A stretch of 64,000 nt of DNA, taken from an uncultured Clostridia bacterium. GTDB taxonomy: Bacteria; Bacillota; Clostridia; Christensenellales; UBA1242. The translations under genes were made by a program, and so were the position numbers. Numbering within the stretch: the first letter of the stretch is position 1; every line of letters begins with the position of its first letter. Where the stretch lies: NCBI GenBank assembly GCA_944377465.1, contig CALWFA010000001.1, positions 3,994 through 67,993 on the forward strand. The letters are read 5' to 3'. This document shows positions 35,170 to 38,769 of the stretch, piece after piece. The notes beneath the pieces were generated by a model. That model searched no databases. It saw nothing but the letters and a program-made list of their open reading frames with translations, and was not told the DNA's origin.

Positions 35170-35493
35170 TTAATCAGCAATATAATAAAAAGTATTTTTG
35201 ACCTGAGGTAATTTAGCATAGCGATATAAAATATCAAAATAATTATCCACATTCAGATTGATATTCAATTTCGTACTCATCGCAGGATTATATATTAATC
35301 GCTCTACAAATTCAGCAAAGAAATACGGCATTTCTCTAGACTTTTTATTTTTAATACTCGCGAGCGGGAAATCTATATAGCCATACTCTTTTAAAAATTT
35401 TGATCTATCAGGCAAAGAGACATATTCATACTTATCTCCGTCATAGGTTAATTCTCCTATTTTTAGATCCTTATAACACAGTTTAACTTTCAT
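35170..35493 (-). CDS. HipA N-terminal-subdomain-like small protein (HipS-like)
   Basis: 107 aa. KVKLCYKDLKIGELTYDGDKYEYV and MPYFFAEFVE resemble the HipA N-terminal (Couple_hipA) pattern. It overlaps the upstream kinase gene by 11 nt and has SD gaggtga. Confidence 0.6.
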   Translation of the reverse strand: MKVKLCYKDLKIGELTYDGDKYEYVSLPDRSKFLKEYGYIDFPLASIKNKKSREMPYFFAEFVERLIYNPAMSTKLNINLNVDNYFDILYRYAKLPQVKNTFYYIAD

Positions 35494-37048
35494 ATCTCAC
35501 CTCTCTAAGACCAGAAGTCTTATCTATCTCTAGACCCATTCTCTGCAATCTTTCTATATCTTCATATTTTAATTTATTGTTCGTAAATGAGTTTATGAAT
35601 CTAATATATTGCTTTAACAATCTCTTTATCTGCCGATATTCCTGCTTTGACTCAGCTGAAGCATGTGCTATATCAAAATTAGCGCACCATTCGCGTAGCG
35701 CTTTAAATACCGAATACTCCTGGCATATCCTAAAAAAGCCATATTCACGCGTTCTCCATAGTTCTTCTTTCGGCAGTTCTACATACCTCTTCTCCAGCCC
35801 ATCAAACAATAGCACCTGAATATCGTCATATAAATTATGATTAATAGGTCGGCGCTCTAGCATATTCTGCAGTATCTTAGCATAATAAGTGCGCCTTTTA
35901 TTTGCCAGCTCTTCTTTTGCGGACTGGACCTCAGGATCGTCCATATTCGACGCCAGCTCTAGACACTCGTCGTACCATTTCCATGCAGTTATTTCGCCAT
36001 GTTTTTCTTTATAAAAATTGGTGTAGCTATGGCTATACGAATCTTCTCCATAATACTCTGCCAAGGTTATCGCAAAATGATATTCATAATCTGCCGACTC
36101 TGGCATGTGTCTCTTAATAACCGCATAGACCACTTCTAGCGGGATAAAAGTCTCCACGACTTTTCGCATCTGACACTGCTTGATTTTATACTGGACCGCG
36201 CTCTTTATCCTATCTTTGATCGTGAGGTAGTGTTCCTTAATATAAATCTTATCCAATCCGTAGATTTCGTTGAATTCATGTATCAAGGCGTCAAAATTCT
36301 CATCACTAAAATTAGTAGAAAACCAATCTAGCATATCATGAAATTCTCCATTCAATAATTTTTGCTCTTCTACTCCATATACATGTGAATTATTTGGACT
36401 GAACTTAAAAAATTTATCAGTAGAACGCATGAATGCATTGCCGTTGTCATAGAGAGGCGCTAGATCTAAGTAGTTCATCCCACGCTCTTGTTTTATTTGA
36501 AAGGCAATATTCCTACCATGCCTATCTCTCTGCGAGGTCAAATAATCAAAACAGGAAATTTTATTTAGCTTTTGTCTTAGTTTCTCGGAATCTAGTGAGA
36601 CATTCGTAAAGCGATCTATGCGCGCCTCTAATCGCTCTATGATATCCATGACCGATGTGGACCAGCCCGAGTAATCGATCTCTCCGCCAAATTCACTATA
36701 TGCGACATGTTCGCCAAAATCTGGAGAGATTACACCCAAAGCTTGGACGCTATGGTCTATCAATAACTTTGCATCAATGCAGTCGATCCCGAGCTTCTTT
36801 GCTATAAAGGAGGTAAACAATTCAGTAAAAAATTCATGTTTTTCCCCACCGAGTGCAGGATATTTCACAAAATATTTATTTCCTTCTATCTCTATATATT
36901 TACTTGCCGTTCTACCGATATTTGTACTATAACTTGAATTTTTGGTGTCAAAGATTTCGATCACGCCGGGAAACCCTTTCATCGAATCGAAATCTAATAG
37001 TTTATAAAGAGTGTCCACCTTGTCCTTAAAATTTGATAAATCTGACAT
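35483..37048 (-). CDS. HipA_C-like Ser/Thr kinase (HipT-like) with ~280-aa C-terminal extension
   Basis: 521 aa. LTSQRDRHGRNIAF (D-x-H-x-x-N catalytic-loop type) is followed 26 aa later by LAPLYD, as in HipA-family kinases. Confidence 0.7.
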   Translation of the reverse strand: MSDLSNFKDKVDTLYKLLDFDSMKGFPGVIEIFDTKNSSYSTNIGRTASKYIEIEGNKYFVKYPALGGEKHEFFTELFTSFIAKKLGIDCIDAKLLIDHSVQALGVISPDFGEHVAYSEFGGEIDYSGWSTSVMDIIERLEARIDRFTNVSLDSEKLRQKLNKISCFDYLTSQRDRHGRNIAFQIKQERGMNYLDLAPLYDNGNAFMRSTDKFFKFSPNNSHVYGVEEQKLLNGEFHDMLDWFSTNFSDENFDALIHEFNEIYGLDKIYIKEHYLTIKDRIKSAVQYKIKQCQMRKVVETFIPLEVVYAVIKRHMPESADYEYHFAITLAEYYGEDSYSHSYTNFYKEKHGEITAWKWYDECLELASNMDDPEVQSAKEELANKRRTYYAKILQNMLERRPINHNLYDDIQVLLFDGLEKRYVELPKEELWRTREYGFFRICQEYSVFKALREWCANFDIAHASAESKQEYRQIKRLLKQYIRFINSFTNNKLKYEDIERLQRMGLEIDKTSGLREVRYES

Positions 37049-37158: not shown

Positions 37159-37530
37159 TTATTTAAGTTCAACAGTAGCACCGGCAGCCTTAAGAGCTTC
37201 TTCAAGAGCCTTAGCATCAGCTGTAGGAACATTTTCCTTCACTGTAGAAGGAGCGCTCTCTACAAGGTTCTTAGCTTCCATCAAGCCAAGACCAGTAGCC
37301 TCACGCACAGCCTTGATGACAGCGATCTTATTAGCGCCTACTTCCTTCAATACTACATTGAATTCAGTCTTTTCTTCTGCAGGGGCAGCAGCCTCACCAG
37401 CTACAGCTGGACCAGCCACTACAGCAGCAGCTGCACTTACGCCAAATTCTTCTTCTAATGCTTTTACCAACTCGTTTAATTCAACGGCGGTCATCTTTTT
37501 GATTTCTTCAACGAATTCTTGTTTAGTCAT
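37159..37530 (-). CDS. rplL: 50S ribosomal protein bL12 (L7/L12)
   Basis: 123 aa with an Ala-rich hinge. C-terminus [19 protein letters not shown]... Confidence 0.96.
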
Positions 37531-37557: not shown

Positions 37558-38043
37558 TTATTCTTTTTCTGCGATTGCTTTTAATGCACGAGCAAGACCC
37601 GAAACTGGTGCATTGAGGACATACAATAACTGTGCAACAAGCTGATCTTTGCTAGGAATGTTAGCTAGAGTCATCACGCCTTTGTCATCGAGAGCCTGAC
37701 CATTGTAATAGCCAGCCTTGATAGACATTGCGGTGTAATCTTTCATAGCATTCTTGATCATGCGAGGAGCTACAGTCTCGTCATCTAAGCCAAACGCAAA
37801 TGCGGTGGTACCATTTAGTGATTCGTCTAGACCCGTGATGCCTAGTTGGTCACATGCTTTCTTGAACAATGTATTTTTAATAACCTTATACACTACATTA
37901 TTCTCACGCATAGACTTTCTAAGAGCGGTGTCTTGAGCCACTGTGATACCGCGGTAATCAACTAATACTACCGATTTCGAATCAGAAATCAGCTTCTTAA
38001 TCTCTTCTACCGCAGATTTTTTTGCTTCTAGATTTGCTGACAC
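37558..38043 (-). CDS. rplJ: 50S ribosomal protein uL10 (GTG start)
   Basis: 161 aa with typical uL10 sequence. SD aaaggagg lies upstream. Confidence 0.94.
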   Translation of the reverse strand: MSANLEAKKSAVEEIKKLISDSKSVVLVDYRGITVAQDTALRKSMRENNVVYKVIKNTLFKKACDQLGITGLDESLNGTTAFAFGLDDETVAPRMIKNAMKDYTAMSIKAGYYNGQALDDKGVMTLANIPSKDQLVAQLLYVLNAPVSGLARALKAIAEKE

Positions 38044-38192
38044 TTTATCCTCCTTTATGCTTTGTAAATAAAAATTCCTCTTGCCAAGACAAAAGGAATC
38101 TAATCAATCGACATTCTCTTCTCTCCTACACAAGCAACTTCGTTTACGCCAAGTGTGGCACTTGTGGTCTTTGGCAGAATTTTTATTTAACT
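38044..38192 (-). promoter_or_regulatory. rplJ leader with attenuator hairpin (L10-leader-like)
   Basis: A ~149-nt leader follows a consensus promoter. Hairpin auuccuuuug...caagaggaau followed by uuuuuauuu (38065..38100) sits just upstream of the SD. This matches the transcription-attenuation layout of Firmicutes L10 leaders. Confidence 0.55.
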
Positions 38193-38198
38193 GTGTAT

Positions 38199-38227
38199 AT
38201 TATATGTCAAAAGAAATGATTTGTCAA
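38199..38227 (-). promoter_or_regulatory. rplJ-rplL promoter (TTGACA-17-TATAAT)
   Basis: Minus strand reads ttgaca aatcatttcttttgaca tataat. Confidence 0.65.
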
Positions 38228-38284
38228 CAGTATTTTTACATAATTTTAAAATCTTTTTACTGTTCTATTTATCCGCTTGAACAC

Positions 38285-38358
38285 GGCGGAAGCAAATCTA
38301 GCGATTTTAGGCGAAGGCAAGCCTTCGCCCGGCACGGCTCACGCCGTGCGCTTCCGCC
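38285..38358 (-). ncRNA. Candidate structured RNA or palindromic element: 74-nt GC-rich four-helix junction
   Basis: A 9-bp closing stem encloses three hairpins of 7, 8 and 5 bp, all Watson-Crick. On the minus strand two loops are canonical tetraloops (GUGA, CUUG). Strand and function are uncertain. Confidence 0.35.
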
Positions 38359-38740
38359 CCCACCATTGATCCTGACTACTAGGTATATCACTCATATATG
38401 TTCATACGAAATAAATCTATAAAATATAAAACATATCTAAATATAAAAATATAAAGACTCTTTATACCATAATAAAAGAACTTATATCATAAACTTATAT
38501 CTCTTCATGAATGCTAGCAATAAGACAAGACCCTGATCTTACTATAATTAAATTATAAATCTATCATTATTCGTATATCAATAAATGTAGCCCAAACCCG
38601 CCTTGATCTGATAAAATCTGCTAAAAATACCATAATCTTTAATCTTATATACTGACCAAACACAGATCGATAGCTAATTTTTGACAAGATTTTTCGACAT
38701 TTATTCGTAAAAATATGGCATATAATCTCACAATCATATA

Positions 38741-38769
38741 TTGACATATCATGACGAATGTGATAAAAT
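38741..38769 (+). promoter_or_regulatory. Promoter of the 349-aa lipoprotein gene (TTGACA-17-TAAAAT with TG extension)
   Basis: ttgaca tatcatgacgaatgtga taaaat. Confidence 0.6.

Follow-up and report, generated by a model that had tools for sequence, protein, structure and literature searches.

What kind of element is a short, perfectly paired, G+C-rich cloverleaf in the AT-rich spacer upstream of a ribosomal protein operon, and is it RNA, DNA structure or part of the control of that operon? The locus lies in the window, i.e. the whole 64-kb stretch of DNA that was analysed, from an uncultured gut Clostridia species. Here a 74-nt element (window positions 38285-38358) folds identically on both strands into a cloverleaf-shaped closed four-way junction, with 9 + 5 + 8 + 7 = 29 Watson-Crick pairs, no mismatch and no G-U pair, linkers of 0, 2, 2 and 0 nt at the junction, and loops of 4 nt in all three hairpins (Table 1). 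An earlier reading of this DNA, made from the sequence alone, had proposed just such an outer stem enclosing three hairpins with 29 Watson-Crick pairs, and both the sequence and RNAfold, run on both strands, agree with it.

As RNA, the + strand of the element reaches -46.7 kcal/mol (z -6.9) and the - strand -49.9 kcal/mol (z -8.5; RNAfold, ViennaRNA), with the four-way junction as both the minimum free energy and the centroid structure, and on neither strand did any of 200 shuffles fold equally well. Single-stranded DNA parameters return the identical structure, at -30.1 and -31.1 kcal/mol (z -6.7 and -8.4, respectively). The G+C content of the element is 64.9%, as opposed to 26% in the remaining spacer, and both the highest G+C content and the lowest folding energy of any 74-nt segment in the whole window are found here, so that the G+C island noted earlier is borne out. 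The element is real and very stable, far beyond what would be obtained by chance. Two larger units were considered and set aside, namely a pairing of 38265-38283 with 38399-38417 found by RNAfold, and a 16/20 AT-rich inverted match between 38252-38271 and 38438-38457; in neither is the pairing kept across strains, and neither has a flanking duplication.

Table 1. Positions, in window numbering, of the parts of the element and of the neighbouring genes and signals
Feature	Position	Strand	Remarks
rplL	37159-37530	-	
rplJ	37558-38043	-	
L10 leader (RF00557)	38060-38192	-	59.7 bits; also in relatives without the element
rplJ sigma-70-type promoter, TTGACA-17-TATAAT	38227-38199	-	12/12; conserved in strains, recognisable in relatives
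Outer stem, 5' arm (+ strand), GGCGGAAGC	38285..38293		9 nt, 100% complementary to 38350-38358; invariant in all strains
Hairpin AAATC-TAGC-GATTT	38294..38307		5-bp stem; loop varies at 38300 and 38302
Central hairpin GGCGAAGG-CAAG-CCTTCGCC	38310..38329		8-bp stem; perfect 20-bp palindrome with a CGCG or CATG centre
Apex dinucleotide, hypervariable	38319..38320		six alleles
Hairpin GCACGGC-TCAC-GCCGTGC	38332..38349		7-bp stem; - strand loop GUGA; invariant in all strains
Outer stem, 3' arm (+ strand), GCTTCCGCC	38350..38358		pairs with 38285-38293
C-run (+ strand) / G-run (- strand) abutting the outer stem	38357..38361		4, 5 or 6 bases by strain
AT-rich block adjoining the element	38359..38515		conserved within the species; 1-5/20 columns vary vs 6-13/20 in 38535-38690
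Lipoprotein gene near-consensus promoter	38741-38769	+	
Lipoprotein-like gene, 349 aa	38793-39842	+	divergent from rplJ

Between the element and the -35 hexamer of the rplJ promoter downstream there are 57 nt, and the match to the L10 leader is 93 nt away from the element, on the far side of that promoter; the earlier placement of the element outside the leader and about 60 nt from the -35 hexamer was thus accurate. In the other direction, 434 nt of AT-rich DNA separate it from the lipoprotein-like gene. The gene content of the window includes ribosomal proteins, RF-1, PrmC, a Mur ligase, RecD2, ComFC, a HipA-like kinase and a protein of 7192 aa. Among the 19 non-ribosomal ORFs of the window, scanned against Pfam, none encodes a transposase, recombinase, reverse transcriptase or relaxase; no partner enzyme or mobile-element gene was found near the element within the window, and no regulator gene adjoins it.

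Several features of the neighbourhood may be recorded in their own right. The 7192-aa protein is encoded by a single ORF on the - strand (39918-61496), with a lipoprotein-like signal at the N-terminus and no Pfam domain on record. Its length is 7189-7211 aa across strains, homologues in relatives are called at about 2000-6600 aa, and in some species a homologue lies directly upstream of rplJ. The 349-aa lipoprotein-like protein appears to be a fast-evolving surface protein, since it shows 79-100% identity between strains whose L10 is 100% identical; a paralogue (71-80% identical) is found at another locus, beside AsnA and an amino-acid kinase (L095 2501-3478; L098 2501-3478). Throughout the clade (the window and L011-L033) rplJ-rplL stand without a preceding rplK-rplA, and the giant gene or the divergent lipoprotein gene precedes them instead. 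Between rplL and comFC, this species only has a HipA_C-like gene of 521 aa with an overlapping ORF of 107 aa (35170-37048, - strand), in place of which strain L010/L093 has a 283-aa gene call; in relatives, comFC or a small HTH gene follows rplL immediately. The conserved AT-rich block next to the element contains, upstream of it, two exact 10-nt direct repeats in tandem (AACTTATATC; 38479-38501, 13 nt start to start). Among the relatives, the L10 leader of L011 is interrupted by about 130 nt of inserted sequence with a 23-nt direct repeat at its borders (GAAAACTAGCAAGAATGCAGTTCG; L011 2690-2900), and L012 (2900-2985) and L030 (3955-3985) have extra sequence between the terminator-like hairpin of the leader and the ribosome-binding site.

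Comparison with known classes of element

No family in Rfam 15 reached its gathering threshold over the element: the best overlapping matches scored 15-17 bits against thresholds of 37-50, under permissive settings, and the only family that passed its threshold, RF00557, lies outside the element. This is in line with the sequence-only reading, which had recognised no Rfam family here. By its length of 74 nt and its cloverleaf arrangement of four helices, the element could be taken for a tRNA-like element or a decayed tRNA gene, and the CCCACCA that follows it on the + strand (38359-38365) resembles a tRNA 3' end. However, ARAGORN predicted no tRNA gene in the window, and no Rfam tRNA or tmRNA match was obtained at the element even with E up to 10. 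The closing stem has 9 bp instead of 7, the 4-nt loops include no T-loop, D-loop or anticodon loop, and the CCCACCA is probably due to chance, the number of Cs before ACCA varying by strain. A tRNA relic is therefore extremely improbable and, for practical purposes, already refuted; the earlier statement that this is not a tRNA stands.

An intrinsic terminator was not found at the element by a terminator scan, and on neither strand is the structure followed by a T-run (3' flanks: GUGUUCAAGC on the - strand, CCCCACCAUU on the + strand). Bacterial extragenic palindromic repeats include the GTAG- and CGTC-tagged REP families (PMC3733652). Neither tag is present at the ends of the palindrome (GGCG.../...CGCC), the nearest GTAG lying about 20 nt off in the flank, and RAYT-type transposases are absent from the 19 ORFs scanned. 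Nor is there a target-site duplication of the MITE type, the flanks (GGGG and GTGT on the - strand) not being duplicated despite the outer 9-bp inverted repeat. Inspection by eye showed some likeness to Chi sites, HipB operators and attC boxes, in the form of short partial matches of the kind expected by chance in G+C-rich sequence. Since the defining features that were tested fail, the element should not be filed under tRNAs, Rfam families, intrinsic terminators, tagged REPs or MITEs. Cruciforms generally need negative supercoiling and perfect inverted repeat arms of at least about 6 bp with a short spacer (PMC9180970), and three of the four repeats here have arms of 7-9 bp, with spacers of 2-4 nt in the inner hairpins. 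The element is best described as an intergenic hairpin-forming palindromic element. What sets it apart is that the four-way junction is closed, that the stems are perfect and that it is apparently present in a single copy.

By analogy, the element resembles REP, MITE or GC-cluster hairpin elements more closely than any other kind. With REPs and BIMEs it shares the character of a G+C-rich extragenic palindrome that can form hairpins in DNA or RNA, comes as a compound unit and has a patchy taxonomic spread. REPs, however, are single imperfect palindromes of 20-40 nt with a GTAG or CGTC tag, copy numbers from the tens to the hundreds and, in many cases, a linked RAYT transposase, whereas the element is a closed four-way junction with perfect stems, untagged, seen once, and without a transposase in 64 kb. 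Like MITEs, it is of small size, encodes nothing, has an inverted repeat at its borders (the 9-bp outer stem), folds stably and departs in composition from its surroundings; unlike them, it has no target-site duplication and is single copy in the window and second locus taken together, and with 74 bp it barely reaches the size range of MITEs. Mitochondrial GC clusters, double-hairpin elements and repetitive hairpin-forming elements are likewise G+C-rich hairpin islands in AT-rich spacers, with preserved stems and variable loops (PMC2800124), but they are organellar and multi-copy and have no sequence relationship to the element. The inverted terminal repeat of parvovirus/AAV is a T-shaped hairpin (PMC9180970) that also has a closing stem around small internal palindromes, forms in single-stranded DNA and exists in flip and flop orientations, which may be compared with the TT/AA and AC/GT alleles described below. 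That repeat is nevertheless three-way, and is a viral replication origin of 125-145 nt at the end of a genome, whereas the element is a chromosomal four-way junction. As the RNA that folding predicts, the element would be similar in size and four-helix topology to tRNA and the enterovirus 5' cloverleaf, which are four-way-junction RNAs of 75-90 nt, yet it has none of their conserved loop or junction nucleotides, its loops are of 4 nt, and there is no sequence or profile similarity.

Distribution and variation within the species

The element is restricted to one uncultured gut Clostridia species and is fixed in all strains read. Strain loci were gathered from metagenome contigs by means of the identical L10 protein, and in addition by L12, an L10 variant and lipoprotein variants; the element was present in 27 of the 27 strain-level loci read, which represent about 15 haplotypes. 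The contig index has 102 blocks with this L10 protein. In a collection of 5.8 billion proteins the closest other L10 proteins show 84% identity, no intermediate relatives being known. As relatives we compared four lineages of L10 homologues and at least 14 species-representative genomes, which include, among the matches listed, uncultured Clostridia, Candidatus Onthoplasma and a Christensenella-like MAG. Upstream of rplJ in these four lineages and at least 14 related species there was no such element, no similar sequence and no comparably folded G+C island, and the best 74-nt folds in that region ranged from -17 to -30 kcal/mol. The G+C maxima upstream of rplJ that could be mistaken for analogues are the proline-rich part of the lipoprotein gene in L028 and L030, and an unrelated weak fold in L032.

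Wider searches gave the same result. A covariance model built on the strain alignment (R1) found no match in 167 kb of DNA from relatives and, with filters off, a single match in the 64-kb window, the element itself; BLAST of the window and of the 167 kb likewise revealed no further copy. There was no copy in the few kb of a second locus, apparently from the same species (L095-L098), and exact-pattern scans for each half, with loops free, returned nothing from 185,579 species genomes, JGI metagenomes and IMG/VR. BLAST of the element had no matches in phage records and, in plasmid records, only short chance matches in G+C-rich genomes. The divergent lipoprotein/rplJ arrangement is common to seven relatives, all of which retain the promoter and leader without the element. 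Thus, the arrangement is older than the element, and rplJ can be controlled without it. The sequence-only reading had named a lack of conservation in relatives as grounds for giving up a dedicated RNA gene; above the species level conservation is indeed lacking, with at least 14 species devoid of the element, whereas within the species it is fixed and constrained.

When 12 distinct haplotypes were aligned over 4.2 kb, 9.6% of the columns proved variable. The spacer falls into two parts, one hypervariable (about 38535-38690, where 6-13 of every 20 columns vary) and one conserved, which extends from about 38515 to rplJ and has the element inside it. The hypervariable block, upstream of the lipoprotein promoter, consists of two deeply divergent haplotypes that stop abruptly at about 38515, an edge that looks like a recombination boundary. 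Within the element, one of the 58 stem positions varies, as opposed to four of the 16 unpaired ones (Fisher p=0.007). The same 1/58 may be set against 21/215 columns in the non-coding DNA of the conserved block (binomial p=0.019) and against 17% of columns in the whole spacer (p=0.0002); in the promoter and leader 6/184 columns vary, and the stems are equally invariant. Stem invariance, taken together with a genome composition that would be expected to erode G+C-rich DNA, provides moderate evidence that the complementarity of the arms is under constraint.

The sole stem change is a G-to-C substitution at position 37 of the - strand (window 38322), present in L004, L009 and L092, which affects the apical pair of the central hairpin and is uncompensated. 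The remaining 28 of 29 pairs never vary across nine distinct alleles, with neither compensatory nor wobble changes, and covariation therefore speaks neither for nor against the fold. Covariation in orthologous spacers had been put forward earlier as a way to check the structure; the spacers of other species proved unalignable, and the strains supply only these near-invariant pairs.

At the apex of the central hairpin the alleles are, on the - strand, TT, AA, AC, GT, GC and AT. The two columns require 5 and 4 parsimony steps, are tri-allelic and rank in the top 0.8% of 4003 columns on a neighbour-joining tree of the flanking 4 kb, a tree that is only a rough guide because of heavy recombination in the population. 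The CUUG that the sequence-only reading took for a canonical tetraloop of the - strand is thus the allele of one strain, replaced elsewhere by CGCG, CACG, CGTG, CAAG or CATG. It had served, with the GUGA loop, to argue that the rplJ strand is the functional one. Being the most variable spot, it can no longer be used in this way, and the argument is left with GUGA, which is invariant. In the 38294-38307 hairpin the loop reads GCTA, GCCA or ACCA on the - strand.

With a GC or AT apex the central hairpin is a perfect 20-bp palindrome. All six apex alleles are connected by single steps, from C to T or from C to A on one strand or the other. Such strand-symmetric, C-directed change would be the expected pattern if loop bases were exposed in single-stranded DNA, or if a methylated C in the central CG were deaminated; local hypermutation in bacteria is known to result from hairpins, from single-strand exposure and from methylation (PMC10710837). 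A flip/flop inversion of the central loop was also considered, TT/AA and AC/GT being reverse complements, yet the non-palindromic loops of the other two hairpins were never inverted. Point mutation therefore accounts for the alleles no less well than flipping and, given the single C-directed steps, mirrored point mutation is the simpler explanation. The G-run of 4-6 bases beside the outer stem has a length variation that is typical of homopolymer slippage.

Origin and possible roles

The reading that we prefer, tentatively and with somewhat less than even confidence, is that of a compound DNA palindrome peculiar to this lineage. It would have been gained by insertion, its pairing would be maintained at the DNA level, and it would have no part in the regulation of rplJ. 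On this view a set of four nested inverted repeats, all perfect, would have entered the AT-rich divergent lipoprotein/rplJ spacer in the ancestor of one species. The cloverleaf would fold when either strand is single-stranded, as in the lagging-strand template and possibly in strongly underwound DNA between the divergent promoters; the Watson-Crick complementarity of the arms would be preserved, and the loop apices would be free or hypermutable. Any role for the host would probably be modest and structural, for example to provide a rigid G+C-rich block or a spacer on the upstream side of a very strong promoter. We infer all three components, namely origin by insertion, maintenance at the DNA rather than the RNA level, and an insulator or spacer role. 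For insertion we rely on composition and distribution, because spacers upstream of the promoter are unalignable between species, and no empty site was seen. A 65% G+C segment inside 26% G+C DNA makes local point mutation an unlikely source, and the absence of the element from related lineages that keep the promoter and L10 leader also counts for this reading. Furthermore, 29 Watson-Crick pairs with no G-U pair fixed or segregating would be expected if it is DNA pairing that is preserved, since G-T destabilises DNA hairpins (P about 0.05 at an assumed wobble frequency of 10% per pair). No conserved promoter feeds the element, the only strong candidate (38581-38552) lying in the hypervariable block and being lost in L007. 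The contrast between stems and unpaired positions and the C-directed changes at the apex also favour this reading, as do the negative searches of the genome, metagenome, viral, phage and plasmid collections.

The DNA palindrome also meets difficulties. The element is single copy in the 64-kb window and a few kb besides, whereas REP and MITE families are multi-copy, and it has no target-site duplication, no GTAG/CGTC tag and no mobile-element enzyme in the window. Purifying selection on the stems suggests some function, of which a purely selfish or relic element would have no need, and a host function at the DNA level is hard to name. As a rough estimate, two single-stranded DNA cloverleaves amount to about -61 kcal/mol, and the 74-bp duplex to about -125 kcal/mol. 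The estimated extrusion cost of about 60 kcal/mol exceeds the likely physiological supply of supercoiling, so that formation of the whole cruciform in vivo is doubtful; single palindromes would be borderline for extrusion, and folding when a strand is transiently single-stranded seems most plausible by these estimates.

The sequence-only reading had raised four possibilities, namely a small RNA, a protein-binding or insulator RNA, a REP/MITE-like element and a cruciform, of which a palindrome acting at the DNA level and a structured RNA both stay in contention. A species-specific structured RNA, whether stable and small in its own right or a module within a longer upstream transcript that runs towards rplJ (- strand) or the lipoprotein gene (+ strand), is possible but, on balance, doubtful; the cloverleaf would then be a protein-binding platform or a nuclease-resistant end structure. 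Many bacterial small RNAs are confined to one species or genus. The extreme stability of the RNA fold (-50 kcal/mol, z -8.5), the invariant GUGA loop, of the GNRA type, on the rplJ strand, and the combination of conserved stems with variable loops, a pattern of structural RNAs, point to RNA, as do weak promoter-like sites at 38224-38252 on the + strand (9/12) and 38581-38552 on the - strand (11/12). However, the better of these promoter candidates lacks conservation among strains, the structure has no intrinsic terminator or U-tract behind it on either strand, and neither wobble pairs nor covariation are seen. There is also no Rfam match, the CUUG loop that was an argument for the - strand is hypervariable, and the element is missing from all relatives examined. 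In a wider form, the element could be a dedicated single-copy structure of one species in the rplJL control region, either a cloverleaf RNA of a new, small kind or a four-way DNA junction to which a protein binds, with the fast-changing apical dinucleotide as a recognition or contingency site, and this we regard as somewhat unlikely.

Two further explanations place the function in the DNA. In one, negative supercoiling between the divergent promoters would convert at least one of the palindromes into a cruciform, which, by taking up torsion or by attracting proteins that bind junctions, would modulate the rplJ promoter, the lipoprotein promoter or both. The element does lie between divergent near-consensus promoters, the twin-domain model predicts underwound DNA in just such a position, and the perfect arms, the spacers of 2-4 nt, the AT-rich flanks and the strand-symmetric apex variation are all consistent with extrusion; but arms of 5-9 bp are short, the whole cloverleaf would take an estimated 60 kcal/mol or so to extrude, and relatives with the same divergent arrangement manage without the element, which makes this regulatory structure unlikely. 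In the other, the element would be a cluster of palindromic operators, bound as duplex by dimeric proteins that contact the half-sites and leave the central bases free. Variation exactly at the centres of two palindromes, with half-sites invariant, would then be accounted for, as would the distance of about 20 bp (two helical turns) between palindrome centres and a location about -90 to -165 from the rplJ start, which is where upstream activators bind in other bacteria. Yet the three inner palindromes are unrelated in sequence, so that three different proteins would be required. Their perfect nesting in a fourth inverted repeat, with linkers of 0, 2, 2 and 0 nt, is a requirement of a folded junction and unlike independent operators, and there is no adjacent regulator gene; we consider an operator cluster very unlikely.

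Taken as nothing more than a palindromic insertion, the element would show that a cluster of G+C-rich hairpins of foreign origin can become fixed beside an operon that is among the most strongly expressed in an AT-rich genome. With arms that stay complementary and apices that mutate repeatedly, it would also serve, in an uncultured gut bacterium, as a natural record of the mutagenesis associated with hairpins. Should it be transcribed or bound by a protein, its biological reach would still be narrow, because it is confined to one lineage, but it would represent an unusually compact, species-specific four-way-junction element without known relatives, and as such would be relevant to the discovery of RNA and DNA structures.
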